Positions 946 to 20,518 of a stretch of DNA of 54,762 nucleotides are shown here, one piece after another. The position numbers were made by a program, and so were the translations under genes. The number at the start of each line of letters is the position of its first letter. Position 1 is the first letter of the stretch. A model generated the notes under the pieces. The model was not told the DNA's origin. It made no database searches and saw nothing but the letters and a program-made list of their open reading frames with translations. Source of the DNA: Candidatus Heimdallarchaeota archaeon (GTDB taxonomy: Archaea > Asgardarchaeota > Heimdallarchaeia > Hodarchaeales > Hodarchaeaceae); NCBI GenBank assembly GCA_048881705.1, contig JBHLSH010000015.1, forward strand, positions 1-54,762. Reading direction: 5' to 3'.

Positions 946-1707
946 CTACTCATATAGGAACTGGATTGTTTTTTGTTCGGAACCATCTGCCCAAAAGGCC
1001 TTTTTCGTGAGTACCATGATTTTCATGAGCTCCCTTATGTCGCGCGGGGGGAGATTTGACCATGATTGTTTCATCTTGACGATATCAAACGCGGTGACCA
1101 TGTCATACCCGTTTTGAAAGGCATAATTGAATAAATCTTCAGCGTAGCTTTGGAGTGTTTTCCAATACACACGCAAACGATTCTTTTGGTCATCCCACCA
1201 TTTGGCTTTTCCTTTCTCAATTAAAAAATCAGAAATTAGGATCAACTGTTGAGTAGTGAGCTTTTTACGCAAGACAGGATTATGAAAAGGGTAGACCAGA
1301 CTGATCTCTTGCAGATCAATGACATGTATATTTAGAAGCCTGGCAAAATCAAAAAGGAAATCCCCCCAGGTTAACAACCATTGTTGCCTGAGTTGAGGAT
1401 CCTCAGGAACCATCCACCGCCAAGGCTTTTGTACCCAAGGCGGTAGAATAGGTTTAATTCGCGGGTCTACAGTTCCCGGACTCAACTTCAATGAGCTGGC
1501 GCGTTTAACCGAAGTTTGAGTTTGTGGGGCCTCTGTTTGAGTAGGTTGCGGAATCCGTGGTTTGGGCGTAGGAGATTTAACTTTCGGAGCGGGAGGAGAA
1601 GTTTTGGCGGCTTGGGACTGAGTAACCTGATCGAGGACATTTTCAAGCACATCAACTGAATCCCGATCCTGTTTTTTCTTAGGACGTTTGCGCTGCATCT
1701 CAGCCAT
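946..1707 (-). CDS. vps25: ESCRT-II subunit Vps25-like with Pro/Lys/Thr-rich N-terminal extension
   Basis: PPW...RQQWLLTWGDFL, PFHN...RKKL, GKAKW...LRVYWKT resemble eukaryotic Vps25 tandem winged helices; lies in the ESCRT cluster. Confidence 0.88.
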   Translation of the reverse strand: MAEMQRKRPKKKQDRDSVDVLENVLDQVTQSQAAKTSPPAPKVKSPTPKPRIPQPTQTEAPQTQTSVKRASSLKLSPGTVDPRIKPILPPWVQKPWRWMVPEDPQLRQQWLLTWGDFLFDFARLLNIHVIDLQEISLVYPFHNPVLRKKLTTQQLILISDFLIEKGKAKWWDDQKNRLRVYWKTLQSYAEDLFNYAFQNGYDMVTAFDIVKMKQSWSNLPPRDIRELMKIMVLTKKAFWADGSEQKTIQFLYE

Positions 1708-1765
1708 ACAAGGTCACGTTTGTAATAGTTGCCTCTCCTGGTAAGACTGTCATATGTATTTACAA

Positions 1766-2911
1766 CTAGCCTCCAAATTGGTCTCTCCATTCTTCAAATC
1801 GAGAAAGCTCCTTAGGGGAGACGGAGGGTTTGATGTGCTCCATACTAGATAGGAAATCGTTTGTATCGGGATTACGCGGTCTAATTTCGCGGTTTTTTAA
1901 GGCCCCGTCGGCATCCAGCTCTCGAATGGGGATCATCAAGGCTTCTCGGCATAGTAAGGCAATATCAGCAGCGGTATACCCCGCTGTATATTTTGCCATC
2001 TCCATGAAACTGAGATCAGGATCGAGTTCTACCCCACGTGTATGAATTTCAAACATCTTTTCACGAGCTGCAGTGGTAGGCAATGTCACATAAACACGCC
2101 GTTCAAAGCGCCGACGCATGGCTGCGTCAATGTCCCAGGGAGTGTTTGTGGCACCGATGGTTACTAGCAGCTCGTCTCCCGTTCCAAATCCCTCAACAGC
2201 TTGGAGAAGCTGGGTTTTGATCCGCCTCATAGCTTCATTTTCCGTCCCGCCTCCTCGTCTCCCCCCCAAGGCATCTATTTCATCAAAGAAAATGATTGAG
2301 GGAGCCTCCTCGGCCGCGCGATCATATAGTTCTTGTACCAGCTTTTCTGATTCTCCCAACCATTTCGACACCAGACTAGCCGCTGAAACTGAAAAAAAAG
2401 TAGAGTCCACTTCCGAGGCCACCGCCTTGCAAAGATAAGTTTTACCACAGCCAGGAGGTCCAAACATTAGAATCCCTCGCCAAGGACGTCTTGCACCTTT
2501 AAAAAGGTCAGGACGAGACATAGGAAGGATAATAGCCTCACGCAGAGTTCTTTTCGCCCCTTCCATCCCAGCAACATCTTCCCACTTAACATTCGGTTTT
2601 TCACGAACGATAACACTAGAAATAGCGCCAGAAATTTCATCTTCTTGCTCTCGTGGAGCACCTCGGGTTGAAGAGGAAGATTTACTCTCTGAAGGTTCTA
2701 TAATTCCACGGATTTCCTTGACACGAAAAATGTACTCCATTGCCTTGCGATAATACAATTCTTTCATATTTGGGTCATCTGTGAAATTAATAAGCTTTTG
2801 TAGTTGCTCTGCAGCGTTCACGTAATGACGAACTGCCTGATGGGATTGACCACTTTGATCCAACTGATAGGCACGAGCCGCGTTCTTTTTGGCCTGTTCA
2901 AATAGACTCAT
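1766..2911 (-). CDS. vps4: Vps4 AAA+ ATPase (MIT + AAA)
   Basis: N-terminal MIT (AARAYQLDQSG...Y..AAE.L), Walker A GPPGCGKT, pore loop SKWLGESEK, Walker B IIFFDEID, RRRFERR. Start likely ATG 2911 (MSLFEQ). Confidence 0.96.
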   Translation of the reverse strand: MSLFEQAKKNAARAYQLDQSGQSHQAVRHYVNAAEQLQKLINFTDDPNMKELYYRKAMEYIFRVKEIRGIIEPSESKSSSSTRGAPREQEDEISGAISSVIVREKPNVKWEDVAGMEGAKRTLREAIILPMSRPDLFKGARRPWRGILMFGPPGCGKTYLCKAVASEVDSTFFSVSAASLVSKWLGESEKLVQELYDRAAEEAPSIIFFDEIDALGGRRGGGTENEAMRRIKTQLLQAVEGFGTGDELLVTIGATNTPWDIDAAMRRRFERRVYVTLPTTAAREKMFEIHTRGVELDPDLSFMEMAKYTAGYTAADIALLCREALMIPIRELDADGALKNREIRPRNPDTNDFLSSMEHIKPSVSPKELSRFEEWRDQFGG

Positions 2912-2974
2912 AGTGAGGACACCAATGATTGAAACTGGAATGGGAGCCAATGAAGGAGAGGGGAAAGAGAGGAA

Positions 2975-3589
2975 TTAGCTTTTCTTGATTTTCTCTAGCT
3001 CTTTTTGAAGCTCCTGTGACCGAATATCGGGCGAGGGAAGCCCAAAATCTGCCGCTGCAGCTTTGGAAGCACTAATTTCTCCAATTATTTTGTCTACCAT
3101 TTCGTCTTCTTCGACATCAGAGGTCATAAGATCAAAACCTTCATCCATTGCCTCGGTAGCTAGATCTATACGTTCTGTTTCAATTTCCATCTGATTTAGC
3201 ACTCCCTCCAACTGCGGAATTCTTAGCTGCGCGTTCATTGAGTGTAAAGTTCTAACTAATCCCTTTAAATCTTGGCCAATCGCTTGAGTCGCTGCTGCTT
3301 GTTCCAGCTTGAATTTAATCCCTTTAACCCGGCTAGCCATTTGCTGGCAGCCCCGGGCCATGGCCCGATTTTTCGCAACGTCCTTGGCTAGGAGGCGGGC
3401 AGTAGAAACGTCGCCATCTTCAATGGAACGTTCTACTTCCTTCATCATCCGCTTTTCCTCTTTGATCAGCTTGCTACGCTGACGAAGCATTCGTTTTTCG
3501 ACCATACGGAGGCGGACAATCCATTTACGTGTTGCCTGTGCTTGATTACCTCCACCCTTAAGCCAGTTACCGAACTTGTCAAATACCAT
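2975..3589 (-). CDS. ESCRT-III subunit, Vps2/24/46 (CHMP1-3) class
   Basis: Basic N-half/acidic C-half helical Snf7 fold; ARLLAKDVAK, QLEGVLNQME; C-terminal MIM1-like ELQKELEKIK; directly upstream of vps4. Confidence 0.92.
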   Translation of the reverse strand: MVFDKFGNWLKGGGNQAQATRKWIVRLRMVEKRMLRQRSKLIKEEKRMMKEVERSIEDGDVSTARLLAKDVAKNRAMARGCQQMASRVKGIKFKLEQAAATQAIGQDLKGLVRTLHSMNAQLRIPQLEGVLNQMEIETERIDLATEAMDEGFDLMTSDVEEDEMVDKIIGEISASKAAAADFGLPSPDIRSQELQKELEKIKKS

Positions 3590-3593
3590 CGGT

Positions 3594-4265
3594 TTAGGAC
3601 CTCAATCCTTCTTCAATTTGTTTTCGCATTTCATCAAGCTTCTTTTTGTCCGCTTCGCGGCTGGTTGTGGTGCCTTCTTCGGTTTGAGCGGAAACCATAT
3701 CTGGGGAGGAGGATACAGGAGTATCGGCTGCTGGAACCCCAGAGGCAAGTTCGGCCTCGAGTTCTGCCATTTGTTGAGAGATCCGATCATCAGCCTCTAC
3801 ATCCATACCAATTTCTGTAATGGTTGTGTCCGTAAGGGCATCTTCCATGTCAGCTACCATTTCCATCGAACTCTCTAGGCCCATCATAACTTCTTCAGTT
3901 CGCTCGGGAGAGGCCGATGCTATGTTTGAATCGATCGCAGTTTGTGCGGATGCTAAAGTCTCCGTTAATGCTACGTTATCAGCAGAGATATCCAGAGTAT
4001 CTATTGTACGTTGAAGATTAGCAATTTTAGAGTGAGTCCGAGTCACCTGGGTGAGGTATAGTTCTCTCCGTTTCAAGGCCTCATGAGCCCCAGGCTTGTT
4101 TCCCGCTTTTAACAGGGTACGAGCCAGCTCATACTGCTCATCTGCTTGCCGCTGATAGTTGCGTATCTTTAATTCCATCTGATTGATAGTACGTTTGAGC
4201 TTTGCCTTGGTTTCAGTCGATGAACTCGGTTTGTTCTTCGTTAAAAACCCTCTTAGGCGTTTCAA
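3594..4265 (-). CDS. ESCRT-III subunit, Vps20/32/60 (Snf7/CHMP4-6) class
   Basis: K..A..ALKRR.LY..Q pattern (GNKPGAHEALKRRELYLTQ), acidic C-half; TTG start, N-terminal amphipathic KRLRGFL. Confidence 0.92.
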   Translation of the reverse strand: MKRLRGFLTKNKPSSSTETKAKLKRTINQMELKIRNYQRQADEQYELARTLLKAGNKPGAHEALKRRELYLTQVTRTHSKIANLQRTIDTLDISADNVALTETLASAQTAIDSNIASASPERTEEVMMGLESSMEMVADMEDALTDTTITEIGMDVEADDRISQQMAELEAELASGVPAADTPVSSSPDMVSAQTEEGTTTSREADKKKLDEMRKQIEEGLRS

Positions 4266-4497
4266 ATAAGTTTCAACCCTTTATATAACAATATGATTGT
4301 GATTCTTGCTGGATAGAGCGTTTTGAAATTGCCCCTAATCCAGACATCCTCTACGAATAATAGATTGATTATGCATAATTGTCTTTAGAATTTAAGACTT
4401 TCCTATGGGTACCTCATCAAGAGCATCTAAGAAAACGAGGAGCGGTTTCACTTCCTTAGGATGACTTGTTACGATTAAACTCCATCGAAGATAACTT

Positions 4498-5214
4498 TTA
4501 CATACCGGGAAATGATAAGATTACCCCATCTAATGTCTCGGAGCGTATTACAATTTTTTTCTGGATTAATGGTGACAAGGTTTGATCGATGCGCTCAATA
4601 CTCCATCCTGTTTCTTTGATCAAGTCTGTAAGATTTATCTCCCCATTATATCGAGCCGCTAGGTTTAGGATTGTATGATGGTCTTGGCTAAGATTTGGAT
4701 CAATGAACTCAACTACTTGCATTCCACCTAGCTCTCGAATATTATGAACCAGTCCATTAGAGACAAGAAGATCTAATGCCTGCGAAATATCAGAAATAGC
4801 AACCGTTATGCCTTGACTCTCATCATTTAGTTTTAGGATAATCTCAGTGGTACTTAGAAGTCCACCGGTCCTGTTTCGTTCATTTTTTCCGATTTCCAAA
4901 ATTCGCAATGCAAGGAAGTTCAGGTATTCATCCTTTCCCTTTAAACGTTGAATGAACGAGGGTTTTTCACCTACTTCATAAATTCCGATGGCCCGGGGAA
5001 GTCCTAGTTCCTCCCGTAGATTCATGAGTTGTTTACTCAAAGCAGGATTCTTTTTAAAATCAGTTTCATACTTCTTTTCAAGATCTTGGAGATCTCTATG
5101 TAGAGAATGAACCTGCTGGCTCATTTTCTCGAGAGATTTTAAGGCCATCTCGGCTCCTTTCCTTTTCATCTCTGTTTCGCGAAGGAGCTTTTCTTCAATT
5201 CGTCTTAGACCCAT
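4498..5214 (-). CDS. vps22: ESCRT-II subunit Vps22/36-like (EAP30 domain)
   Basis: Aligns by eye with Snf8/Vps22 (KKNP.L..Q, LALRILEI...RTGGLL, DH.TILNLA...G.I, TGWSIERIDQTL..LIQK). Start likely ATG 5214 (MGLRRI); no GLUE domain. Confidence 0.9.
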   Translation of the reverse strand: MGLRRIEEKLLRETEMKRKGAEMALKSLEKMSQQVHSLHRDLQDLEKKYETDFKKNPALSKQLMNLREELGLPRAIGIYEVGEKPSFIQRLKGKDEYLNFLALRILEIGKNERNRTGGLLSTTEIILKLNDESQGITVAISDISQALDLLVSNGLVHNIRELGGMQVVEFIDPNLSQDHHTILNLAARYNGEINLTDLIKETGWSIERIDQTLSPLIQKKIVIRSETLDGVILSFPGM

Positions 5215-5415
5215 CAAAATGCACCCGCTATAAAATTCAGTTAAATCGTGTTTTATTACTCTGATCACAGGCAATAAATACTCAAGTTGATCGACTTAAA
5301 ATGTTTTAGAAACAATAACCAACAGAGGATCATGACATGTCCGAAGTTTCTTCCTTTTTAAGGGAGGCTTAGTGGAGGAAGTCTGGATCGCTATACACAG
5401 GCCTGGTTCTCGAGA

Positions 5416-6762
5416 ATGTCATCCTCTTCTAATGAGCTTTTTTGTTCTTTTTGTGGGGTCCAGATCCAGAAGGGGAAGGGGTATAAGTGCCAAGAGTGTC
5501 AAGCAATTTTCTGTGCATTGTGTGGAGTCAAACGAGGAAACCAAGGTTTGCTTATAACGTGTAAGTGTGGTTCAGGTATTGTTAACAGGGAAGAATCCAA
5601 TTTAGATCTGAAAACTGAACTTTTAGAGCATTTATTCGCTTTGAAGAAGGCGTTAAAGCAGGTAGCATACCGACCTGTCGTCCTCTTAAAGAGATTAGGT
5701 CATTTAGAGTCACAGCTACGTCCCTTGACGACAAAATTCTTAATTCCAATAGAACAGATAGACCGCATGTTCTCTGACACCAAGGAGATTGAGGAATTTA
5801 TTCTAGAGGAATTTAAGGAGTTTTCAACCAAACTTCATCGATATTATCAAAATATCAATGAGGTAAAGGGGATCGCTAGTAGTTCTTCCGATCTTGCCCT
5901 ACAGTTAACCCTTTTTCAAAAACAGGTCCAAACGTTTGATCAAACCGTTCAAATGAGACTTCGGTCAATAGAGGACCTCCTAGATGACTTATTTTCCGAA
6001 TACACCGCTATTCATGAGATGGAAACGGAATTACGCCAATTTTCAGATGTTACTGGATTTGGACCAGGAGAGCTAGGGATCAGTCTGTTCCCAAAGGTTG
6101 AACTAAACGGTGAAAGTGTTCGTAAGACAAGCGTAAATATGCTGATCACTACCAACCGTATTCTATTCCTGCAAAAGAAAAGGAAAAACGTATTAGGCTG
6201 TGAATTTGTCCTATATGACGAATTTGGCACTGGTGATCTTGTCGATGTAAAAATTGTTGAGGAAGGCTTTCTTAAACGTCGCAAATTAATAATCCAAGCT
6301 ATGAAACGGGAGTATGGGCTATACTCGGATAACGGTACACTAGATCAAATTGTAAAAAGTCTCCAGATAGGTTATTACGGAGAACCTAACAATAATTATA
6401 CGCATAAACCGCTCCGAGATTGGTCTTCTGAGGTGTATCAGGAGGAAATTCTTTCAGCCTTAAACTTCTCAATGAATCCAAAGGAAGATCATGCAATGCT
6501 TGATTCTACTTCCCCATTATTTCCTGAAAGAACACCCAATTACGTTTCAGAAGTGGTAGATGAGCACCTTCGTGATCTTCGTGTCCAAAAAATGGCAACG
6601 ATAAAAGCCTTGGAAGAACTCAAGACTGGAGGTCGTAAAGTAACCAATCGAGATTATTTTGATCTAGTAAAGCAATTTGAACTTGACTTAGCCAAAATCA
6701 ATGAAAAGATAACAGATCTATTGGTGCGATCCGGAAGAACAAACTTATATGATTATTTCTAA
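5416..6762 (+). CDS. Multidomain ESCRT-associated protein: 8-Cys FYVE-like Zn finger, coiled coil, PH/GRAM/GLUE-like domain, C-terminal steadiness-box-like hairpin
   Basis: C10-x2-C13-x11-C25-x2-C28-x4-C33-x2-C36-x12-C49-x-C51; MLITTNRILF...DLVDVKIVEEGFLKRRKLII; ATIKALEELKTGG..V...DYFDLVKQ. CDS certain; domain calls by eye. Confidence 0.6.
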   Translation: MSSSSNELFCSFCGVQIQKGKGYKCQECQAIFCALCGVKRGNQGLLITCKCGSGIVNREESNLDLKTELLEHLFALKKALKQVAYRPVVLLKRLGHLESQLRPLTTKFLIPIEQIDRMFSDTKEIEEFILEEFKEFSTKLHRYYQNINEVKGIASSSSDLALQLTLFQKQVQTFDQTVQMRLRSIEDLLDDLFSEYTAIHEMETELRQFSDVTGFGPGELGISLFPKVELNGESVRKTSVNMLITTNRILFLQKKRKNVLGCEFVLYDEFGTGDLVDVKIVEEGFLKRRKLIIQAMKREYGLYSDNGTLDQIVKSLQIGYYGEPNNNYTHKPLRDWSSEVYQEEILSALNFSMNPKEDHAMLDSTSPLFPERTPNYVSEVVDEHLRDLRVQKMATIKALEELKTGGRKVTNRDYFDLVKQFELDLAKINEKITDLLVRSGRTNLYDYF

Positions 6763-6785
6763 TCTAGGAATCGCTCTTTTAAGGA

Positions 6786-7409
6786 TTAAAGATTCCTAAG
6801 TTCGCGACGAAAATCCGAGAGCCAACGTGCCACTTGAAGCTCTAATTTTTCGAGTTCATCTTTTTTCAATAGAACTCCGGCTTTTTGATTGTCCATCCAT
6901 GCAATCCATTCTGTAATATCCTTGCTTACCCAATGATCTTCGCCATAGATGGCGGAACTCAATAAAATGGCATGTAATTCATCCAAATATGGAAGAATGC
7001 GATCTACGGTAGCAATAGCCTCCAATCTAAGCAAATCCAGCAGCTCAATTGCGTGTGCCACAAATTCGGCCACTTGTGACGGGAGTTGCGTTATGCGTTG
7101 GTAATCAATGCGGTTTTGAACCATATCATCCGTACCTTCGGTTCTACGAAGTTTTTCTAATCCGAAAGGATATAACTGGTCAACCTGCTCTTCCTTAATG
7201 AAAGCGTCCAGGTCAAAGTGATATGGTTCAAGAGAAGCCCTAACCTCCACAATTGTCGTTAACAAACTTTTATACTGTTTGTGAAAAATATTTGGCTCTA
7301 TTTCTCCTCGTTCGTAAGTTCGGGATAAGAGGTCAAGGGTACTTATACAGGCAAATAGCCGCCCCTCCAAATCCCACCTTTGAGATAGAGTGGATGGAAA
7401 TGTTATCAC
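6786..7409 (-). CDS. vps28: ESCRT-I subunit Vps28
   Basis: LFACISTLDLLSRTYERGEI, VAEFVAHAIELLDLLRL, ILPYLDEL, W...M....L match Vps28 N- and C-terminal domains. Confidence 0.9.
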   Translation of the reverse strand: MITFPSTLSQRWDLEGRLFACISTLDLLSRTYERGEIEPNIFHKQYKSLLTTIVEVRASLEPYHFDLDAFIKEEQVDQLYPFGLEKLRRTEGTDDMVQNRIDYQRITQLPSQVAEFVAHAIELLDLLRLEAIATVDRILPYLDELHAILLSSAIYGEDHWVSKDITEWIAWMDNQKAGVLLKKDELEKLELQVARWLSDFRRELRNL

Positions 7410-7415
7410 TTTTGA

Positions 7416-8159
7416 TCAGCTCAGATACTCTAGTTGTTTTCTAACGACATAGAGTTCCTTCATGTATTGACGAAACAGTCGTGAATACTCAAAAATGGAA
7501 ATATCTCCGCGAGAATAGCGGTCTTCTAAAGAGGACAGTAATTCCGAGATTGCGAGACGTTCTGACTCTAGGCTTTCTCTTTCAGAGAGAGATGTGGATC
7601 TAGAGAACTCTGGAGAACTAGCTTGAACAGTTTGTTGGGCTCTCAATCGAGAAAGCTCTTCTTCTTTTTCCTGAAGTTGATCCGACAAGCTATTCAGTTC
7701 TGTTCGAAGAACCCGAGTCTCTACAGACTCTTGCTGCGCGGGGGTGGCGGGAGTTATCGGGGCTAATCTAGCCATTGTTTCTCTTACAGTTTTAGCATCT
7801 TTAGCTGCTTCACCCTTAGGTCTGGGAGGAACTCGCGACATGAGATTTTTGAGTGCGATTATTACCTGGTATAGGTGAAATTCGGCTCGCCAGTTATCCA
7901 AGATGCGTAGCTGAACAAAACCATCTTCATCCACATTGGGATGATCCATAAATCCTGGTGCAGTAACCACGGGAGGAACATTCGGGTAATATTCTGGCAG
8001 AAAAATTTCAAACACGAAGCGCGCCCGCCCTTGACTTGTTGTGTATGTCAAGGTGCCTTGCCACCTGTCTAAAGTATCGCCTACAGGATCAAAACCGGCT
8101 GCAGCAGAATTAGAATATACAAGCTGGGCTTCCCTTGCTAGAATAAAGTCACGATCCAT
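7416..8159 (-). CDS. vps23: ESCRT-I UEV-Vps23/TSG101-like protein
   Basis: UBC fold (FEIFLPEYYPNVPP, HPNVDEDGFVQL with catalytic Cys replaced by Gln), Pro-rich linker, coiled coil, steadiness box LEDRYSRGDISIFEYSRLFRQY. Confidence 0.9.
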   Translation of the reverse strand: MDRDFILAREAQLVYSNSAAAGFDPVGDTLDRWQGTLTYTTSQGRARFVFEIFLPEYYPNVPPVVTAPGFMDHPNVDEDGFVQLRILDNWRAEFHLYQVIIALKNLMSRVPPRPKGEAAKDAKTVRETMARLAPITPATPAQQESVETRVLRTELNSLSDQLQEKEEELSRLRAQQTVQASSPEFSRSTSLSERESLESERLAISELLSSLEDRYSRGDISIFEYSRLFRQYMKELYVVRKQLEYLS

Positions 8160-8232
8160 ATTAAATACACCGAACGGCTGCTGAATCTAACTATATGCCT
8201 CTAATTCCCGATTTAAAAATCCATCAGAATCG

Positions 8233-8249
8233 GAAAGACTCGGCCTTTC
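8233..8249. promoter_or_regulatory. Candidate palindromic operator GAAAG-N7-CTTTC upstream of vps23-vps28
   Basis: gaaag actcggc ctttc(ta); same arms and spacing as at 11926-11942 upstream of ubiquitin. Confidence 0.35.
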
Positions 8250-8320
8250 TAAGTTAAAGAATTGGCTGATCATGGCCCTATCAATGAGGAATAATGTTTT
8301 CACGACCATTGAGGTTTTAT

Positions 8321-9550
8321 TTAGAATTTTGCTGATGCAAAAAAGTCCATAATGGCCTCTCCAAGCAATTCAAAGGCAGTTTCAATATTGTTCCCCGTTT
8401 TTGCGCTAGTAGGAAGATAATGTATACGAAACCCTCTATGTTGCCTAGATATCTGTGATAGACGACTAACAAAGATTTGAGCCTTATTGTCCTCCACAGT
8501 CAGCGTTTCACCAGAACGTAAATCAGCCTTATTACCTAAAACGATTATTGGAACAGGCCCCCTACCATTATTCTTCCATAGTTCATTCATCCAGGCAACA
8601 ACATTTTGGAAGGATTCCAAACGAGTTACGTCAAAAACAACAAGGGCCCCGACTGCATTATTATAGTAAGCCTTTCGGACGACATCAAATCGGGGTTGTC
8701 CCGCTAAATCCCAGATGACAAATTTGATTTGTTTTCCCCCCGGATATATTGTTGATGAACTCTTAGTGGCCAAATCTGCCCCAATGGTCATTTGGTAGTC
8801 TTCTTGGAATCCCTCGCCAAGATATTGTCGCCTAATTGATGTTTTGCCGACAGCTCCATCTCCTGCCAAGACGATCTTGACTGCATAATGCTCTCGAACA
8901 AAGGATGCTTTTGTAGCTTCAATTATTCGATCGACGGCCTCACGAAACGGAGGACTCGACTCTGGTGTTTGATTCGGATACTCCCGGATAAGGTGACTCA
9001 GATCAACCGCGAGAGCTCCAACTTGATCTCGTTGAACCCCCCTCGAAGTTACAACTGCAATGATGTAGGCATCTTCTACCACGAAAAACTGAATGGTCTG
9101 GCTTTCCAAAGCCAGAACCTCGAGTAGTTCTCCCAGCTTATATTGAACGTAGTTTTTGATGGTATTGAGAATGAACGAGAGAGAAGTTTCAAGATCCTTG
9201 GACTCGGCCAAGCGATATGTAAAGAGAGGGTAGCCGCTCTTTCGGAAGCAGGAGATTAAGAAAATATCCTCGGTCTGTGCGGGTCGCTTTTCTAAGCCAA
9301 AACGGAGAAAATCATCTGAATCTTTGGATTCTAAAGAATAGGCTTGCTCAAGTATGCTCATATAATCAGTTTTACCTGATAGGGCTTCTTCAAGATCGCC
9401 TTTTACTTTAAGATGAAATTCTTCAATATCCTTTGCAGCCGCATTGTCTGTCAACTTTGCTGCTAGATCAGTATAATCTATGTCCCGTTTTTGCGGCTGA
9501 ATCGATTTTTCTTCGGATTCACCTTGAGGAGAAGAATTTTCGTTAGCCAT
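8321..9550 (-). CDS. Longin(-like) domain + Rab-like small GTPase fusion
   Basis: G1 GDGAVGKT, G2 TIGAD, G3 WDLAGQ, G4 NKAD, G5 SAK, preceded by a longin/roadblock-type alpha/beta domain (IFLISCFRKSGYPLFTY...IQFFVVEDAYIIAVV). Start set to ATG 9550 (MANENS) because the longer ORF overlaps the divergent gene. Confidence 0.88.
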   Translation of the reverse strand: MANENSSPQGESEEKSIQPQKRDIDYTDLAAKLTDNAAAKDIEEFHLKVKGDLEEALSGKTDYMSILEQAYSLESKDSDDFLRFGLEKRPAQTEDIFLISCFRKSGYPLFTYRLAESKDLETSLSFILNTIKNYVQYKLGELLEVLALESQTIQFFVVEDAYIIAVVTSRGVQRDQVGALAVDLSHLIREYPNQTPESSPPFREAVDRIIEATKASFVREHYAVKIVLAGDGAVGKTSIRRQYLGEGFQEDYQMTIGADLATKSSSTIYPGGKQIKFVIWDLAGQPRFDVVRKAYYNNAVGALVVFDVTRLESFQNVVAWMNELWKNNGRGPVPIIVLGNKADLRSGETLTVEDNKAQIFVSRLSQISRQHRGFRIHYLPTSAKTGNNIETAFELLGEAIMDFFASAKF

Positions 9551-9742
9551 TGGATGAATGGGCTCCGAATGGTATCTGGATAACGATATAATTACAGAAA
9601 AGGAATAATTACATCCTCTCTGGAAAAACCCTTGTCTTAAAAACCTTAAAAGGGTTTGTTTAAAAAATGCAAAAAACGATATTAAACGGCATTCAGTGAG
9701 TAGCGAAACGCTTTGTATAAGCGGCCATTCTGAGGTAACTTC

Positions 9743-10498
9743 ATGTCCGAGGCCGAGTCGATCGTTTGCCCAAATTGTGGAGAGCGAAGTCCCGCAGGGT
9801 ATGTACTCTGTCCGTACTGTGGATTTGATCTCACGAAAATTGTACGAGAAGCTCATCGCGTTCGAGTCACGTTTCGAGAACGGTTTAGCCGGATCTGGCG
9901 AAGTTTTTCTGATCCTAGGCTGAGCGAAACCCTGTTCACAGAGATTGGAGTCAATCCTGATCGTCTTGGCGCGATTATGGTTCTGTATCTTGTTTCGGCA
10001 GCTTATGCCCTACGGATGGGAGCCTTTGTCATCAAGGCAAGCACCCCAGGTTGGCATGATTTAGCTCTTTGGTTTTTTATTATTGGCCCATGGATTGTCG
10101 GTCTTGGATTCATCGCCTTTGCGTTATTTGGCTGGGTGGTAAGTGGTATTGTCGTCTGGTTAAGTGCAAAAACACTAGGTGGAAAAGCCAGTTTAAGAGA
10201 TACAATGGGTATTGTTGGATATTCCTTTGGTCCACTGATTCCGGCATCCTTTTTAGTAAGTCTATTAATCATAATCCTAGGAACAGGAGCTCCTTTAGGT
10301 TCTCCCATAACTTCAATATCACCCTTAACTAGCGAAAATTATGTCATTTTTGAATATCTCTATATCCCCTTTTTTGGATGGACAGCGTACCACTGTGGGA
10401 ACGGCATCCGTGCCGCTCACTTACTCAGTAATCTGTACAGTTATGCCATTAGCGGACTTGTTACTGCTGTCTATGTGATTCTATATTTTTTCCTCTAA
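9743..10498 (+). CDS. Zinc-ribbon + Yip1-domain multi-pass membrane protein
   Basis: CPNC-x10-CPYC ribbon; about 5 TM segments with LSAKTLGGKASLRDTMGIVGYSFGP, a Yip1/DUF1282 signature. Confidence 0.75.
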   Translation: MSEAESIVCPNCGERSPAGYVLCPYCGFDLTKIVREAHRVRVTFRERFSRIWRSFSDPRLSETLFTEIGVNPDRLGAIMVLYLVSAAYALRMGAFVIKASTPGWHDLALWFFIIGPWIVGLGFIAFALFGWVVSGIVVWLSAKTLGGKASLRDTMGIVGYSFGPLIPASFLVSLLIIILGTGAPLGSPITSISPLTSENYVIFEYLYIPFFGWTAYHCGNGIRAAHLLSNLYSYAISGLVTAVYVILYFFL

Positions 10499-10511
10499 CA
10501 ATTTTGACCGG

Positions 10512-11510
10512 CTAATCTAATTGTATTGTGAACTTTAGCGGGATTGTTAAGACCGGATCGATTACTCGAAAAGTATCTCCCGATTTGAAAACCTCTCCAA
10601 TAAGGGTGTCAGATATAGGGAGCGTAGATGTTTGAATCATAATCGCGCTTTTGTCCCCTAAATTGAATGCATAGCGAAGCTGCTGGATGAATTCCTTGAG
10701 CGTTTGGTTTTTAGGGCTACGAACTCGTATTTTTTCTAGTTGGAACCGAGTAGAACAGATAAAACAATCTTCTCTTCGTTTGAGTGGTACGCTAGTAAAA
10801 GCTCCAGCACGGCCATCCCAGAAAAAGTAGGCTTCCATTGGAGGAATTCCAAGTATTACTTTTAGCGCCTCCTGAGCCATTAATCCACCAATGACAAATG
10901 AGACACTAGATACGGAGGGGACGTCTTCTTCTATCTCTTCATCTGGACGGGATATCTTTCGTTCGGTTCCAAATGGTGTGCATGCCTTTTGTAGCTCTTC
11001 CTCGGGAATTAATGATTGACAATCCAAGCATGCCGTTTGAAAAGGGATAATAACCTGAACATTACCAAGGAATCCATAGATACCCCCCGATACGAGGGGG
11101 ATTTTTGCGGATATGGCAAAAGCGTTAATCCACCTTCTTGAAGCAAAGGTATCCAGCCCTTCAATAAGAACTGTAGATGATCGCAACTCTTGCTTTGGGA
11201 TTTCTTCAACTGGGTGATTAAAAGTATCGACTTGGATTTCACGATTCAAATTTCGGATTGCATCGGCTGCGACTGTGACTTTTGGTTTACCCACATCAGC
11301 GGGGTTGAATAGTAATTGACGATTCAAGTTACTGATTTCCACCGTATCATAATCAATTAGTTTGAGGTGACCAACTCCAGCCAGGGCGAGTGATGTCGCG
11401 ATAACACTTCCAAGGGCCCCTAGACCAACTATAGAAGCAGTACTTCCCCGAATTTTGTCTTGATCCCAATCTTTAATAAGAGTTTGCCGGAGATAGCGGT
11501 CTTTACTCAT
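10512..11510 (-). CDS. Ubiquitin-activating enzyme E1-like (ThiF/MoeB fold + putative C-terminal UFD)
   Basis: VGLGALG, DTVEISNLNRQ, CLDC/CFIC Zn pairs, candidate catalytic Cys in ACTP; co-oriented with ubiquitin. Start ATG 11510 (MSKDRY). Confidence 0.9.
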   Translation of the reverse strand: MSKDRYLRQTLIKDWDQDKIRGSTASIVGLGALGSVIATSLALAGVGHLKLIDYDTVEISNLNRQLLFNPADVGKPKVTVAADAIRNLNREIQVDTFNHPVEEIPKQELRSSTVLIEGLDTFASRRWINAFAISAKIPLVSGGIYGFLGNVQVIIPFQTACLDCQSLIPEEELQKACTPFGTERKISRPDEEIEEDVPSVSSVSFVIGGLMAQEALKVILGIPPMEAYFFWDGRAGAFTSVPLKRREDCFICSTRFQLEKIRVRSPKNQTLKEFIQQLRYAFNLGDKSAIMIQTSTLPISDTLIGEVFKSGDTFRVIDPVLTIPLKFTIQLD

Positions 11511-11640
11511 AGATACAACCCTATGAGGATTCTTTCCATTCAAATCGTAAAGATTGTGTAATGAAAAGGATCATTGTAGGTTGTTATATGTGATGATGTC
11601 CTTTGGTTTTTCTAAGGAAATCAGATGGAGAGGGTGAAAT

Positions 11641-11883
11641 CTAGTCATCTACTCCCCCTGTGGTACGAGTAATCATATAAAGTTTATCATGATCTTCTAT
11701 ACCCACCGATTTTAATGTTTCCCCTTCATCCAGTTGTTTACCTTGAAAAACCAAGATGACAGACCTAGGTGGAATTTTCTTTTGCGTAGCTACCCGGTTT
11801 TTGATGGTAGCAATGCTATCAGACTTTTCACATTCAATGAGGATTGCTCCTCCACCGATGGCTGATACTATTTGAAGCTCCAT
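11641..11883 (-). CDS. Ubiquitin (pro-form: GG followed by VDD)
   Basis: IATIKNRV, LVFQGKQLDEGETL (cf. LIFAGKQLEDGRTL), C-terminal RTTGG-VDD. Confidence 0.93.
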   Translation of the reverse strand: MELQIVSAIGGGAILIECEKSDSIATIKNRVATQKKIPPRSVILVFQGKQLDEGETLKSVGIEDHDKLYMITRTTGGVDD

Positions 11884-11901
11884 TTCGAACCAAACCTTTC
11901 T

Positions 11902-11946
11902 ACCGGAAACTCCGGTTTATCCTATGAAAGCCAATGGCTTTCTAGG
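11902..11946. promoter_or_regulatory. Two inverted repeats between a TATA-like element and the ubiquitin start
   Basis: accgga-aac-tccggt (11902-11916) and ccta(t)gaaagcca-a-tggctttctagg (11921-11946); ttttaaaaag at 11947-11956. Confidence 0.45.
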
Positions 11947-12100
11947 TTTTAAAAAGTTAGGTTTTTGGAACATCTTCTTTACCGAGTATAGATCCTCAGA
12001 GAAATAGAAGTCATCTGGATATGAAAATGGGTTCAGGAGGCGAATGAACGAAAAGATCTTGGATAATTACCACAAGCTTCATTATTAGAGTTTTTAGCTG

Positions 12101-12889
12101 CTAATCATTGCTGTTTTCCAAGAAAGTGATTCCGTGATTAGTTATTTCGAAACTTAAGGTTTTTCGAGTGTGATTTGTTCCTCTCATCTTGGTAATACGG
12201 AGTATTCTCAACATTTCTCCCCGAACGGAAAGCATGTCAAGGTGTATTATTGAATCTGCGATATATTCTTCCCCAAAAAGAGTTTTTTCGCCCCCATTTG
12301 AGAGTTCAGAGATGGCCACCGTAGTTACATTTAACGCTGCAATGTTTGTCAGAAATCCTGTTGTAAGCTTTCGTAAGAATCCCAAATCGTTTCCAAAATC
12401 GTAGAACCTGAAGGCAGCCAGCGGATCAATCACTATACGCTCTATTTTCTTCTCTTCAACTACTTGACTAATGCTATAGAATACTTTGTGCAAAAACGTG
12501 GGAAGCGAGGTTTCATCATACGGTACGCCTTCTGTCTCAAGAATCATTTCGGATTCTTCCGCAAATGTTAAACTATCTGGGTCCCACAGTTCCCAGCCGC
12601 TCGGAGTAAAATCAAGTATTACAACCTTTTCGGGCTCCACAAAGTGAGTCTGGTCGAAAAAGGTAAAATTAGAGGCATCTCTTCGAATTGCAAACGGTCC
12701 TTCCTGCATCGCAACCAGAAGCCCATTTTCTTGAAGTCTTGCGCCCTCGGCCAGAAACTGAAGCCCAAAAATTGTCTTGCCTGCCCCTGCAGGACCCAGA
12801 ACCAGATTTGTTGAACCTTTGACAAATCCCCCTTCACACATTGCGTCAAGGTGAGGAACACCTGTGGTAACTCGAGTCTTCTCATACAC
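12101..12889 (-). CDS. Single-domain KaiC/RAD55-family ATPase
   Basis: RVTTGVPHLD, GPAGAGKT, IVIDPL, EEYIADSII, ITKMRGT. Confidence 0.9.
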   Translation of the reverse strand: MYEKTRVTTGVPHLDAMCEGGFVKGSTNLVLGPAGAGKTIFGLQFLAEGARLQENGLLVAMQEGPFAIRRDASNFTFFDQTHFVEPEKVVILDFTPSGWELWDPDSLTFAEESEMILETEGVPYDETSLPTFLHKVFYSISQVVEEKKIERIVIDPLAAFRFYDFGNDLGFLRKLTTGFLTNIAALNVTTVAISELSNGGEKTLFGEEYIADSIIHLDMLSVRGEMLRILRITKMRGTNHTRKTLSFEITNHGITFLENSND

Positions 12890-13025
12890 GCAGTTCGGCC
12901 CTCCATATCACTCGGAAAAGAGTATTAAATGTTCCAGAGACTATGAAAATATTCTTGTGCACCATAAATCCCACACTAAGCTTGGATTTTGATTTTTCTG
13001 ATAAGAGACTAGGAAAGGGAGAGCA

Positions 13026-13601
13026 TCAAATCTGGATCCCTCGAGGTTTGGTAAGTAACTCACGATTCGCTTGCATCTGCTGAATGAGATGATGAAAAGC
13101 CAGTTCTATATTCTCACCACTCCGAATACCTCCAGGATCGGAGGCAACGGTTCCAAAAATCGAGTATTCGTAACGTCCTTCAAGGATGGGTGCAAACATA
13201 TTTTTTCCCAAAAATTCTGGAGATAGCGCCGAGGGAAGATCCTGTTTATTGGCGATAACGAGTATTGGAGTTCGCTTTGAGCTCAGTTCCAATGCATCAG
13301 CCAGCCACTGCTCATCACGGGCGAAATCTCGTTTGGAACTGTCGACCACAAAGACTAAACCGTCGGCCCTCCGCACAAACTGCTCATGATAACGCATGTC
13401 CAGAAACCGCCTTTGACCTCCCACATCGATCAATCCTAGCACCACGTTGTTCATGACTACATGGGATACGCCAAAAGCAATAGTTGGTGTCACACGAGGC
13501 GGTGGAAACCCGTGTTCTAGGTAAAACGCGATACTCGTCTTCCCCACATTGCTCATACCTAACAAAACGACCTGATAGACGTCCTTTGAAAGTTCCTGCA
13601 A
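13026..13601 (-). CDS. Arf-like small GTPase
   Basis: GMSNVGKT, TPTIAF, DVGGQ, FVVDSS, ANKQDL (Arf-type motifs); TTG start uncertain. Confidence 0.85.
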   Translation of the reverse strand: MQELSKDVYQVVLLGMSNVGKTSIAFYLEHGFPPPRVTPTIAFGVSHVVMNNVVLGLIDVGGQRRFLDMRYHEQFVRRADGLVFVVDSSKRDFARDEQWLADALELSSKRTPILVIANKQDLPSALSPEFLGKNMFAPILEGRYEYSIFGTVASDPGGIRSGENIELAFHHLIQQMQANRELLTKPRGIQI

Positions 13602-13997
13602 TAAGAACGTATCCTTTCTTATCCTTTCGGTTTCTGGCTTTTTCTGAATGTCCCTGTTTTCAAGTACATATCCCTATGGCTGATAAATTACTTATACGTT
13701 TATAAAAGGTTAATTTACTAAGGATTTTCAGATAAATAACCATATATGTCACAATTATTGACAGTACTTTCAGATCTTTGTATTAATAAAATCATCCAAA
13801 TCGCTAGTTGGAAGCTCGAAATCACTCGTTGAAATTTCAATAGCTTCGGCCCCATGAAGGAAGTCCTCTATTTAGGGTCTACTTTTCAATGAATTCTATG
13901 GCTAAAAAGTACACTTAGATGACTAATATGGATTTCAATGATTAGGGAAAGTATAAGTTGCAGGTGTTTGTGAACAGATAATGGAAGGGCCCACCCT

Positions 13998-14405
13998 ATG
14001 GTAGAACGGCAACAACGTAGACCAGCTTCTCAAAAAATACGAGAAATTGAAGTTGAAGGTCTAAAAACCCCTAAGGGTACGATTCCAACGATGCGAGGTC
14101 TTGAGACGGCTATCAATTATGTATACACTGAAATTACTGGATTAAATACCCAAATTAGCCTGATTAACACTAACCTGAACAAGCTTGGTCAATCGATAGA
14201 TTCTTTTCATGAAAAGCTAGCGTACTTGAGTGAAGCCCTTTCCAAATTGGTCGTACAAATCGCCCAAAACGAAACAAAATACCAGGGGCAGCAGGATCTC
14301 CTTAAAAACCATCAGGTCGTAGAACGCGCAGATCTTCTTGCCCTCAAAGAAGAACTTGCGAAAATTCTAAACCGTCTTGACCAGGTGACTGAGAATGAGT
14401 CCTAA
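13998..14405 (+). CDS. Coiled-coil protein of unknown function
   Basis: Long heptad-repeat helix from about residue 35 onward; stop overlaps the RING gene start. Confidence 0.7.
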   Translation: MVERQQRRPASQKIREIEVEGLKTPKGTIPTMRGLETAINYVYTEITGLNTQISLINTNLNKLGQSIDSFHEKLAYLSEALSKLVVQIAQNETKYQGQQDLLKNHQVVERADLLALKEELAKILNRLDQVTENES

Positions 14406-14733
14406 TCCTGAAGAAAACACACCATTCATCCGTTTGAAGAGCAAAATTATTAGTGAGGGTCCTCTTAGATCGACGATATCCGTTCCGATGAACCATTTCC
14501 CATCCCCTTCTGAGGTTTCCTCCCTCAAAGTTCAATCTAAATTACTAAATGAGTGGAACCCATATGGTGAGCCCGAGACTTGTATGATATGTTGGAAACC
14601 ATTGGATCTCCTCGGTAAAGATGCCCGATCCTTCATGGAATGCCGTCACTGTCATCGGAAAGCTCATCAGCAGCACATGCTAAGGTGGCTTTCCCGAAAG
14701 AATCACTGTCCATATTGTCAGAATAAGTGGTAA
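14395..14733 (+). CDS. Small RING-variant E3 ubiquitin ligase
   Basis: C-x2-C-x16-C-x2-C-x4-H-x2-H-x3-W-x6-C-P-x-C, with the E2-contacting Trp and Pro of RING fingers. Confidence 0.82.
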   Translation: MSPNPEENTPFIRLKSKIISEGPLRSTISVPMNHFPSPSEVSSLKVQSKLLNEWNPYGEPETCMICWKPLDLLGKDARSFMECRHCHRKAHQQHMLRWLSRKNHCPYCQNKW

Positions 14734-14764: not shown

Positions 14765-15247
14765 ATGATGAAAACGGATCTGGAATCTGGAGTGCGTTCT
14801 ATAGACCTAAATTCTATTCCTGAAGTATTGCGTCACTTAATGTTCCAGATTAACCGTTTAATGGATGAAAATAGTATCGACCGGTCCCAAACCCATCCTC
14901 CTAAGTTACGTCAGCGTGCAAACAACATTGTGGTAATGTGGAACATATTTCTAGAACAAAAAAGCAGCCTTAACAATCTGATGGCGAAGATAGATCAATC
15001 GATAGAAACAATCTTATCTCAAATTAGAGGAGAAGTCATTAAGTTTAACGTAGATTCGGGTACAATCAAGGACATGGGAACCCAGGAATTCAGAGTCATT
15101 AGGGGAAAAATATGGAATGTATACTTTTACGAGCCAGAAGATTTTTTGTCCGTCCGTTTAGTTCATGAGGAAACCTTGCACGATCAGGAACAGTGGATAT
15201 CAGTAGATATCGACCTAGTTACGAATTCGGCCTGGTTTGTAGACTAA
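14765..15247 (+). CDS. Hypothetical protein
   Basis: 160-aa ORF co-oriented after the RING gene; no recognisable motif. Confidence 0.65.
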   Translation: MMKTDLESGVRSIDLNSIPEVLRHLMFQINRLMDENSIDRSQTHPPKLRQRANNIVVMWNIFLEQKSSLNNLMAKIDQSIETILSQIRGEVIKFNVDSGTIKDMGTQEFRVIRGKIWNVYFYEPEDFLSVRLVHEETLHDQEQWISVDIDLVTNSAWFVD

Positions 15248-15556: not shown

Positions 15557-15677
15557 TGGACTATTTGATTCATGGATTTTTTGAAATATTCTTAAGTGCT
15601 ACGATTTCTTAAAGGCTTAAAGTTAATTAACGATCTTTAATTTGACTCACAGAGTAGAAATTCGGGATAGAGCGAAA

Positions 15678-16754
15678 ATGGAAATTCGTCAAATCATAAC
15701 GCCAAAGGGTTCTATACAATCTACTGAGCCCAATATTCCTAAAAAAGTTCTGGTCAAAATGTTCGAAACCATGATTCTTTTACGGCTTCTAGACGAAAAG
15801 GGAATGAGGCTCCAGCGCCAAGGACGAATAGCTTTCAATATACCCTCTACGGGCCAGGAAGCAACTCAGATTGGCGCAGTTGCCGCATTAAACTCTGATG
15901 ACTGGGTAGTTCCCGCTTACAGAGAACCTGGAATTGCTTTATATCGAGGCTATCCGTTGGAAAAGTTAATTGATCATTGGTTTTGCAATCGGGACGATCC
16001 TCAAAAAGGCCGTCGCCTCCCAGGATTATTTGGCGATCGAGACAATTATTTTTTTGTGAATCCCTCCGCTCCGATTGGAACACAGGTAATTCATGCTGCA
16101 GGCATTGGTTATGCGCAAAAATATCTTAAAGACAATCGGATAAGTATTGTGTTTTTTGGAGATGGAGCCACATCCTCCAATGATTTTCACTCTGGGCTGA
16201 ATTTTGGAGGGGTTTTCAAGACACCAACTATCTTTTTCTGTCAAAACAATCAATGGGCGATTTCTGTTCCACTAGCTCAGCAAACTGCAGCAGCTGCATT
16301 ATCCGAGAAAGCAAGAGGTTATGGAATCCCAGGAGTTCGGGTCGACGGAAATGATGTTTTGGCGGTATATTCAGCGGTATCTGAAGCAGCAAAGCGTGCT
16401 AGAAGTGGAGAAGGGCCGACGTTCATTGAAGGTGTTACATATCGAATTGGTCCTCATACCAGTAGTGATGACCCGACCAGATATCGCCCAAAAGAGGAAC
16501 TGGAACGGTGGGAAAAGCAAGAACCAATTTCAAGGTTTTACAAGTACCTATTTGATAAAGGCCTGGTTAAAAGGGACGCTGAAAAGGGAATCAGGGAAAA
16601 ATATGATACAATTTTGAACGATTTAATCAAGGAAGCGGAATCAAAAGAGATTCCAGATATAGGATCCTTATTTACCGATGTATATGCAGACCAGCCATGG
16701 CACCTCCAAGAACAGTATGAGGAACTCGCATCTATCAAAAGGAGGAAAGATTAA
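15678..16754 (+). CDS. pdhA: 2-oxoacid (pyruvate/branched-chain) dehydrogenase E1 alpha
   Basis: LQRQGRI, GQEA, TPP motif GDGATS-x24-NNQWAIS, YRIGPHTSSDDP. Start ATG 15678 or TTG 15642. Confidence 0.93.
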   Translation: MEIRQIITPKGSIQSTEPNIPKKVLVKMFETMILLRLLDEKGMRLQRQGRIAFNIPSTGQEATQIGAVAALNSDDWVVPAYREPGIALYRGYPLEKLIDHWFCNRDDPQKGRRLPGLFGDRDNYFFVNPSAPIGTQVIHAAGIGYAQKYLKDNRISIVFFGDGATSSNDFHSGLNFGGVFKTPTIFFCQNNQWAISVPLAQQTAAAALSEKARGYGIPGVRVDGNDVLAVYSAVSEAAKRARSGEGPTFIEGVTYRIGPHTSSDDPTRYRPKEELERWEKQEPISRFYKYLFDKGLVKRDAEKGIREKYDTILNDLIKEAESKEIPDIGSLFTDVYADQPWHLQEQYEELASIKRRKD

Positions 16755-17731: not shown

Positions 17732-17749
17732 TGAATGGAGATTGGAACA

Positions 17750-19021: not shown

Positions 19022-19039
19022 TTTATAGGAAGGAAAGTA

Positions 19040-20467: not shown

Positions 20468-20518
20468 GAGAGCAAGTTTACTCTTCCTTTGGATACCATA
20501 AAGATTCATTTCGCGGAT

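Follow-up and report, generated by a model that had tools for sequence, protein, structure and literature searches.

Background

Gene neighbourhoods that join a ubiquitin system to the ESCRT machinery (endosomal sorting complexes needed for transport) are known from Asgard archaea, and both the cluster and its biochemistry have been published (Hatano 2022, PMC9192718; Liu 2020, preprint; Makarova 2024, bioRxiv 10.1101/2024.02.06.579148). In the published clusters UEV-Vps23, Vps28, Vps22/36, Vps25, ESCRT-IIIA, ESCRT-IIIB and Vps4 are co-located, and so are ubiquitin, E1, E2, a RING-like E3 and a protein of the Znr_CC_PH_SB type. The same set occurs in the stretch of DNA considered here, a window of 54,762 nucleotides (contig JBHLSH010000015.1) from a Hodarchaeales genome of the 'Ca. 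Hodarchaeum' / B3_Heim genus. A member of this genus, B3_Heim, is drawn in the synteny figure of Hatano 2022 (PMC9192718). We argue that the region is very probably the Hodarchaeales version of the described neighbourhood, with a zinc-ribbon Yip1-domain protein (Zn-ribbon-Yip1, below simply Yip1) as an old membrane-embedded partner. The genes for a longin-Rab protein, an Arf-like GTPase, a KaiC-like ATPase and, in sister species, a PAP2 lipid phosphatase are in all likelihood additions fixed in this genus.

The main texts of PMC9192718 and 10.1101/2024.02.06.579148 do not count Yip1 or small GTPases among the members of the cluster. A 2023 preprint (bioRxiv 10.1101/2023.07.25.550441) already noted that the cluster of Hodarchaeia has Yip1 and a Rab-like GTPase, in the lineage and the three-way adjacency seen here; it also describes a trio of ubiquitin, RING and asCOG005522 in other classes. 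That preprint reports Yip1 for Hodarchaeia only. Its text makes no mention of Yip1 beside E1 or ESCRT-I in other lineages, nor of a longin fold, of the genes for the Arf-like and KaiC proteins, or of hyp160, a conserved protein of 160 amino acids (aa). Our literature search found no text noting Yip1 beside the ubiquitin-ESCRT cluster outside Hodarchaeia.

The published biochemistry of the Asgard ESCRT machinery concerns soluble parts only. For the question of what recruits it to membranes and what it sorts, Yip1 is a concrete and cheap candidate, being a membrane protein of a single family whose gene, across Asgard classes and despite many rearrangements, is still found next to those for ubiquitin and ESCRT-I.

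The locus and its conservation within the genus

Genes were called by Pfam scans of the long open reading frames (ORFs) of the window, and ESCRT-III classes were assigned by PDB sequence searches. Coordinates are those of the window. The cluster genes are the following.

946..1707, minus strand: Vps25 (ESCRT-II); Pfam ESCRT-II PF05871, 57.8 bits; syntenic in all members of the genus
1766..2950, minus strand: Vps4 AAA ATPase; Pfam MIT, AAA, AAA_lid_3 and Vps4_C
2975..3589, minus strand: ESCRT-IIIA, Vps2/24/46 class; Pfam Snf7; best PDB matches CHMP2A (3.5e-14), CHMP1B and CHMP3
3594..4265, minus strand: ESCRT-IIIB, Vps20/32/60 class; Pfam Snf7; best PDB matches Heimdallarchaeota AB_125 ESCRT-IIIB (1.2e-27) and Snf7
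4498..5274, minus strand: Vps22/36-like EAP30 protein (ESCRT-II); Pfam EAP30, 66 bits
5416..6762, plus strand: 448-aa zinc-finger, coiled-coil, PH-like protein of the Asgard 'Znr_CC_PH_SB' type, from local-profile relatives
6786..7409, minus strand: Vps28 (ESCRT-I); Pfam VPS28, 49.8 bits
7416..8159, minus strand: UEV-Vps23 (ESCRT-I ubiquitin receptor); Pfam UQ_con/UEV at residues 24-112, then coiled coil
8321..9550, minus strand: longin-Rab, a longin-like domain fused to a Rab-like GTPase; Pfam Ras, 135 bits
9743..10498, plus strand: zinc-ribbon and Yip1-domain multi-pass membrane protein; Pfam Yip1 (PF04893), 44.7 bits against a cut-off of 28.6, and Zn_Ribbon
10512..11543, minus strand: E1 ubiquitin-activating enzyme (ThiF family); Pfam ThiF, 208 bits
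11641..11883, minus strand: ubiquitin; Pfam ubiquitin, 53.8 bits
12101..12889, minus strand: KaiC/RecA-like ATPase, single domain; Pfam KaiC, 148 bits
13026..13601, minus strand: Arf-like small GTPase; Pfam Arf, 72.5 bits against a cut-off of 22.3
13998..14405, plus strand: coiled-coil protein paired with the RING gene; weak Pfam matches only, all below cut-offs
14395..14733, plus strand: RING-like small putative E3; Pfam zf-RING_2 at 21.7 bits, short of the 27.3-bit cut-off
14765..15247, plus strand: hyp160, conserved 160-aa protein; relatives near ubiquitin-system genes
23744..24244, minus strand: E2 ubiquitin-conjugating enzyme; Pfam UQ_con, 125 bits

Every gene that the initial annotation had named between 946 and 14733 is present by Pfam, the RING gene below cut-off, and its description of a near-complete cluster is borne out: ESCRT-I, ESCRT-II, both ESCRT-III classes, Vps4, ubiquitin, E1, E2 and a RING-like gene are all there. 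The UEV has Gln at the position of the E2 catalytic Cys (HPNVDEDGFVQLRIL), and the E2 retains that Cys (ERVCVGIL). Ubiquitin ends in ...RTTGGVDD, that is, Gly-Gly with a three-residue tail, and RT.GG is invariant across lineages. In the RING-like protein the ligands CxxC...CxxC...H..H...CxxC are visible, and its gene is kept beside ubiquitin across lineages.

The minus-strand genes form three co-directional runs: Vps22/36, ESCRT-IIIB, ESCRT-IIIA, Vps4 and Vps25; longin-Rab, UEV-Vps23 and Vps28; and Arf-like, KaiC-like, ubiquitin and E1, the Arf-like gene being first. Between the runs, on the plus strand, lie the Znr_CC_PH_SB-type gene, Yip1, and the series coiled coil, RING and hyp160.

Vps28 was detected in 40 of 41 related genomes; 20 kb around it were taken from each, and the window proteins were mapped onto these loci. 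All species of the genus (about 20 of about 20) share one gene order at 55-75% amino-acid identity: S2 - Vps25 - Vps4 - IIIA - IIIB - Vps22/36 - 448-aa protein - Vps28 - UEV - longin-Rab - Yip1, followed by E1 - ubiquitin - KaiC - Arf-like - coiled coil - RING - hyp160 - metallo-beta-lactamase (MBL) fold - 338-aa protein - E2. Since all of them have the same order, the co-location seen in the window is not chance. The unrelated ribosomal S2 gene is equally syntenic within the genus, and synteny at this level therefore says little about the function of the GTPases and KaiC.

In most sister species the interval between longin-Rab and Yip1 holds a gene for a PAP2 lipid phosphatase (325-355 aa), in either orientation, for example at L002:2060-3037 (-), L008:6381-7400 (+) and L015:12715-13782 (-) in their respective loci. 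The matching site in the window is 9551-9742. No PAP2 gene was found between longin-Rab and Yip1 in the window, in G001 or in G016 (B3_Heim, with a 504-bp gap that holds no ORF), and none was found anywhere in the source genome, which is 91% complete. In this the window differs from the sister species; from the published clusters it differs also in an E2 displaced by a metabolic insertion, described below.

Yip1 beside ubiquitin and ESCRT-I genes across Asgard lineages

For comparison beyond the genus, iterated local profiles served to annotate loci centred on Vps28 in 19 other families of the phylum, and 66 ubiquitin-centred and 19 Yip1-centred loci were added. Some families are designated by working numbers (f2, f4, f5, f6, f7, f9, f11, f12, f14, f19, f22, f23 and f25).

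In the window Yip1 is convergent on E1, and hydrophobic spans are visible in its translation. In at least 10 Asgard families its orthologues are neighbours of genes for ubiquitin or ESCRT-I, with varying partners. Yip1 adjoins E1, again convergently, in Odin-like archaea, Hermodarchaeia (about 15 loci), f19 and f25. It adjoins ubiquitin and hyp160 in f22 and lies about 4-5 kb from ubiquitin in f9; in f5, ubiquitin and E1 are 7 kb from it. In f2 and f6 it stands directly upstream of UEV-Vps28 on the same strand, and in the low-GC (29-30%) Loki-like family f14 directly upstream of Vps28 alone, also on the same strand (7 loci).

How often would this happen by chance? Pfam finds 1-4 Yip1-family genes per Asgard genome, so that a 20-kb locus would hold one by chance in roughly 1-6% of cases, and it is very unlikely that chance explains the adjacency in at least 10 families. 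An Odin-like genome of 1.4 Mb has a single Yip1 match, and it is in the cluster, 3.5 kb from Vps28. All the linked Yip1 proteins belong to a single family, which follows taxonomy, second paralogues aside, and they carry an N-terminal zinc ribbon, the Odin-like form excepted. The divergent Loki-like Yip1 is homologous over its full length to the other forms (hhalign probability 99.7%, E 2.4e-26). The adjacency of Yip1 to ubiquitin and ESCRT-I genes is thus not fortuitous, and it is probably ancestral.

Some further observations concern Yip1. In f4 (L152-L156, one genus) all 5 of the 5 loci encode a RING-containing protein of 407-424 aa at a distance of about 3 kb from Yip1, and Yip1 is not near Vps28. 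The Yip1 zinc ribbon (CxxC-x10-CxxC) was considered as a ubiquitin-binding NZF finger. In such fingers the second Cys is followed by a Thr-Phe pair; this pair is absent here, Pfam gives generic zinc ribbons only, and the identification was not adopted. Co-folding of UEV-Vps23, Vps28 and ubiquitin with Yip1 gave a score of 0.00 in a run without controls, and counts neither way.

The small GTPases and the KaiC-like ATPase

The longin-Rab gene lies 161 bp upstream of UEV-Vps23 and has the same direction as UEV-Vps23 and Vps28. In PDB its GTPase is closest to Rabs (Thorarchaeota Rab, Rab11, Ypt7 and Rab2), and the G motifs GDGAVGKTS, DLAGQ, NKAD and SAK are present. The C-terminus, ...FFASAKF, has no Cys for prenylation, and for this reason we call the protein Rab-like and not a canonical Rab. 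The open frame, 8321-9856, has 511 codons, 102 of them upstream of the likely start, and overlaps the start of Yip1 on the other strand. Met at 9550 is the most likely start, given that orthologues have 401-420 aa; automatic gene callers may give a 511-aa protein.

The initial annotation spoke of a Rab/longin gene. By sequence no longin domain is detected: there is no relevant Pfam match and no PDB sequence (profile) match, and hhalign against the longin N-terminus of the Odin-like protein described below gives a probability of only 2.7%. A match to 8TM_micro (20.3 bits) is below cut-off, unrelated, and was discarded. A model of the whole protein is poor (pLDDT 61), and the domain was therefore folded alone. 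The resulting model (pLDDT 88, pTM 0.84) has the topology bbabbbaa, and its top Foldseek matches are Mon1-Ccz1, TRAPP Bet5/Trs23, Fuzzy, sigma-adaptins and Sec22b, with TM scores of 0.5-0.62 and E of about 4e-4. This predicted structure supports a longin fold, so the name stands on the model but finds no echo in the sequence searches.

The Arf-like protein is most similar in PDB to Arf3p, Arf1, Arl1 and Arf6. It begins with MQELSKDVYQ; only some 9 residues precede the first strand and P-loop, and it has neither the Gly2 that is myristoylated in Arf proteins nor their long amphipathic N-terminal helix. True KaiC has two KaiC-type P-loop domains. The KaiC-like protein has one, and all NCBIfam KaiC models, KaiC_arch included, match it far below their cut-offs; we take it for a single-domain KaiC-like ATPase and not for a clock KaiC.

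The longin-Rab, Arf-like and KaiC genes keep their position in the cluster only within the genus. Small GTPases are numerous in the source genome (64-70 ORFs): among random windows of it, 26% of those of 20 kb hold at least one and 3% of those of 14 kb hold at least two. A GTPase falls within the 20-kb locus in 5 of the 19 other families, in line with chance. Trees place the Rab-like domain of the window among the paralogues of its own genome. The GTPase adjacent to the Heimdallarchaeaceae cluster matches the C22, C39 and C38 genes of the source genome far better than either window GTPase, and the cluster-linked GTPases of Odin-like archaea and f25 form a separate longin-Arf-like clade. The initial annotation had named a lack of conservation beside ESCRT genes in relatives as the sign of mere chance adjacency. 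For the GTPases this is largely what is found; Yip1, linked in at least 10 families that include Odin-like, Hermodarchaeia and Loki-like ones, withstands the same comparison.

There are parallels elsewhere. In Odin-like genomes a 298-aa protein combining a longin domain (Fuz_longin_1, 27.8 bits) with an Arf-like GTPase is encoded at L040:15036-15932 (-) and L041:15061-15957 (-). This gene follows the ESCRT-III genes by 0.7 kb, and in G041 it is the best genome-wide match of the Arf-like protein of the window. In f25 (isolate H2M.186) a RING-Arf-like fusion at L145:8865-9593 (+) is followed by a stand-alone RING at L145:9740-9976 (+), an arrangement also seen in L143 and L144. The fusion is flanked by the coiled-coil gene of the ubiquitin cluster on one side and its stand-alone RING E3 on the other; its RING finger nearly duplicates that of the E3 (CIVCLLPI..CP.CG..AH..LEWVKTKG.CPFCK), and the best match of the fusion in the source genome is the Arf-like gene of the window. 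More generally, for the Arf-like protein of the window the cluster-linked genes are best or near-best genome-wide in Odin-like archaea and f25, and the reverse holds, with margins of about 1 bit. Two FastTree trees do not join the window gene with the Odin/f25 clade.

Possible working of the module and rival explanations

Several suggestions can be made as to how these genes might work together. Judging by homology to Heimdall, Odin and Hel proteins assayed in vitro by others (Hatano 2022, PMC9192718; bioRxiv 10.1101/2023.07.25.550441), E1, E2 and the RING protein would put ubiquitin on targets. The ubiquitin would be bound by UEV-Vps23/Vps28, which would recruit Vps22/36-Vps25. These in turn would nucleate filaments of ESCRT-IIIB and ESCRT-IIIA, to be remodelled by Vps4. 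From its conserved linkage, Yip1 is probably an old membrane-embedded partner of the ubiquitin/ESCRT-I module, whether as anchor, receptor or dedicated substrate. It is possible, and we say so tentatively, that Yip1 is the ancestral, so far unrecognised membrane component (anchor, receptor or dedicated ubiquitylation substrate) that brings ESCRT-I to the membrane, and that GTPases joined it later in several separate recruitments: Hodarchaeum would have gained longin-Rab and Arf-like, Odin-like archaea longin-Arf-like and f25 the RING-Arf-like fusion.

A number of facts weigh against our main reading, with Yip1 as an old partner of the cluster. In Heimdallarchaeaceae (0 of 12 loci), f7, f12, f23 and Hel the cluster has no Yip1 nearby, nor is Yip1 near Vps28 in f5; a search of Atabey and Borr genomes did not detect it, and in the Thor-like family f11 it is without ubiquitin or ESCRT neighbours in 6 of 6 loci. 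In most lineages Yip1 and E1 are convergent and not co-transcribed. Related genomes in the neighbourhood counts are not independent samples. The RING assignment is under the Pfam threshold (21.7 against 27.3 bits). Finally, the evidence consists of genes and neighbourhoods.

A wider reading, along the lines of the initial annotation, takes longin-Rab, Yip1, Arf-like and KaiC, with ubiquitin and ESCRT, for one GTPase-controlled pathway of membrane-cargo sorting, proto-endosomal in character. The arrangement within the genus is suggestive: longin-Rab lies directly upstream of UEV-Vps23 and Vps28, the Arf-like gene heads the run that ends in ubiquitin and E1, and the insertions and deletions of the genus (gain or loss of PAP2, extra inserts, the dehydrogenase block) fall between the runs and never inside them. 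The N-terminal domain is predicted to fold like the longin domains of Rab-GEFs, the f25 fusion and the Odin-like longin-Arf-like gene look like independent recruitment elsewhere, and the Arf-like genes concerned are reciprocally best or near-best matches. However, both GTPases and KaiC hold their position within one genus only, and proximity across families is what chance would give (5/19 against 26%). The Rab-like domain groups with paralogues of its own genome, while the neighbour GTPase of Heimdallarchaeaceae is nearer to C22, C39 and C38; the Arf-like matches differ by about 1 bit, and the trees do not unite the genes. We consider a single GTPase-controlled pathway unlikely. Because synteny is at the level of the genus, proximity elsewhere is at the level of chance and the GTPase lineages differ, coupling to GTPase control can at most be inferred, and the Rab and Arf genes of this locus are no evidence for an ancestral sorting pathway under such control. 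Of the proposed extension of the cluster, the linkage of Yip1 across families is borne out, and that of the genus-bound GTPases and KaiC is not; as a whole it was half right, with suggestive but non-orthologous parallels on the GTPase side.

At the other extreme, all the extra genes, Yip1 included, might be passengers whose adjacency is historical and has no functional link to ubiquitin or ESCRT. Unrelated genes, those for ribosomal S2 and the MBL-fold protein, are syntenic in the genus too; the Yip1 family is spread over the three domains of life, and 7 of 14 control genomes without ESCRT-I have it; and Yip1 is unlinked in several Asgard families and convergent with E1. Yet the linkage of Yip1 outlasts rearrangements that change its partner and orientation (E1; ubiquitin/hyp160; UEV-Vps28; Vps28 alone), and with so few copies per genome we find it very unlikely that the extra genes, Yip1 included, are all passengers. 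Yip1 might instead belong to the ubiquitin-conjugation module and not to ESCRT, for example as a membrane platform or substrate for E1, E2 and RING, and meet ESCRT-I only through the linkage of the modules. E1 is its commonest neighbour (Hod, Hermod, Odin-like, f19, f25). In f22 and f23 Yip1 is beside hyp160, which elsewhere flanks E1 or RING, and the ubiquitin-E1 pair of f5 and the RING-containing protein of f4 are within a few kb (7 and 3 kb). Thor-like genomes, reported to be without ubiquitin (Hatano 2022, PMC9192718), show no such neighbours. What makes this explanation unlikely are f2, f6 and f14, whose loci have no ubiquitin genes and yet keep Yip1 together with ESCRT-I on one strand. 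We therefore return to Yip1 as a partner of the ubiquitin/ESCRT-I module. Judged from gene neighbourhoods, the cluster itself is a further copy of the described kind, and among the extra genes only Yip1 is linked across distant Asgard lineages.

Some eukaryotic systems resemble parts of this locus or of related ones. Like the system of Yip1/YIPF, Rab and Mon1-Ccz1/TRAPP, the window has a Yip1-domain membrane protein, a Rab-like GTPase and, by the model, a longin fold that structurally matches Rab-GEF longin domains best. Here, however, longin and GTPase are in one polypeptide, and Yip1 has an N-terminal zinc ribbon. As the GTPase of the window lacks a prenylation Cys, the eukaryotic relation between Yip1 and prenylated Rab cannot apply as such. 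TRIM23/ARD1 is a eukaryotic RING E3 with a C-terminal Arf domain, and the RING-Arf-like fusion, found in the ubiquitin cluster of f25 and not in the window, recalls this layout. It has no B-box and no coiled coil, and nothing points to common descent.

Other genes of the neighbourhood

The 448-aa protein has no Pfam match. A local profile finds relatives in the clusters of Heimdall, Hermod and f25. A Vps23_core match (steadiness box, 26.8 bits) is present in the one from Hermod, and the f25 relative combines a B-box-like zinc finger with a Vps36 GLUE domain (22 bits) and EAP30. Pairwise BLASTP matches to these two are weak (1e-4 and 2e-6). The Znr_CC_PH_SB family is cog.011556 (bioRxiv 10.1101/2024.02.06.579148), and the 448-aa protein is probably a third ESCRT-I-associated subunit of this type.

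Relatives of the coiled-coil protein adjoin RING or ubiquitin in Odin-like, Hermod, Atabey, Borr, Hel, f19, f22 and f25 loci. By its position and the published description (bioRxiv 10.1101/2023.07.25.550441) we infer that it equals asCOG005522. The hyp160 protein has relatives beside E1 in Atabeyarchaeia and beside Yip1 in f22 and f23; it has no match in Pfam or NCBIfam, and the protein atlas and PDB sequence search gave nothing usable.

Between hyp160 and E2 the window holds three further features.

15642..21283, both strands: inserted block of 2-oxoacid dehydrogenase E1a/E1b/E2/E3 (plus strand) and lipoate ligase LplA (minus strand); Pfam
21432..22385, minus strand: MBL-fold protein; Pfam Lactamase_B; syntenic in the genus
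22719..23735, plus strand: conserved 338-aa protein; weak glycosidase-like match, Pfam DUF4015 at E=0.002 only

The ubiquitin-conjugating E2 that the initial annotation placed about 9 kb further on is genuine, and by its position in other species it is a member of the cluster. The dehydrogenase/LplA block between hyp160 and the MBL gene is common only to the closest relative, G001 (isolate TM1M.79). Other species of the genus have no insertion there, and in most of them E2 lies 2-3 kb from RING, adjoining the genes for the 338-aa protein, MBL, hyp160 and RING. The distance of about 9 kb between RING and E2 in the window is thus due to the inserted block of 5.6 kb, and we are confident that E2, with the MBL-fold and 338-aa genes, is the original cluster end displaced by this metabolic insertion. 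Relatives of the 338-aa protein are found near the cluster in f9, f12, f22 and Hermod g35; it has no NCBIfam match and no significant PDB match, and the protein atlas gave nothing usable.

In family f7 a protein of 734-736 aa with a strong match to the Vps4 profile (L070:4798-7002 (-), L071:12148-14358 (+)) adjoins the ESCRT-III genes; its neighbours in L071 include a Vps4 of normal size. Elsewhere in the source genome, local profiles pick out an EAP30-like gene, E1 and an E2-like gene on contig C72 (about 10.7-20.4 kb), and E1, a ubiquitin-like gene and a RING-containing gene on contig C57 (about 7-11.8 kb). These two groups may be second ubiquitin-like modules.

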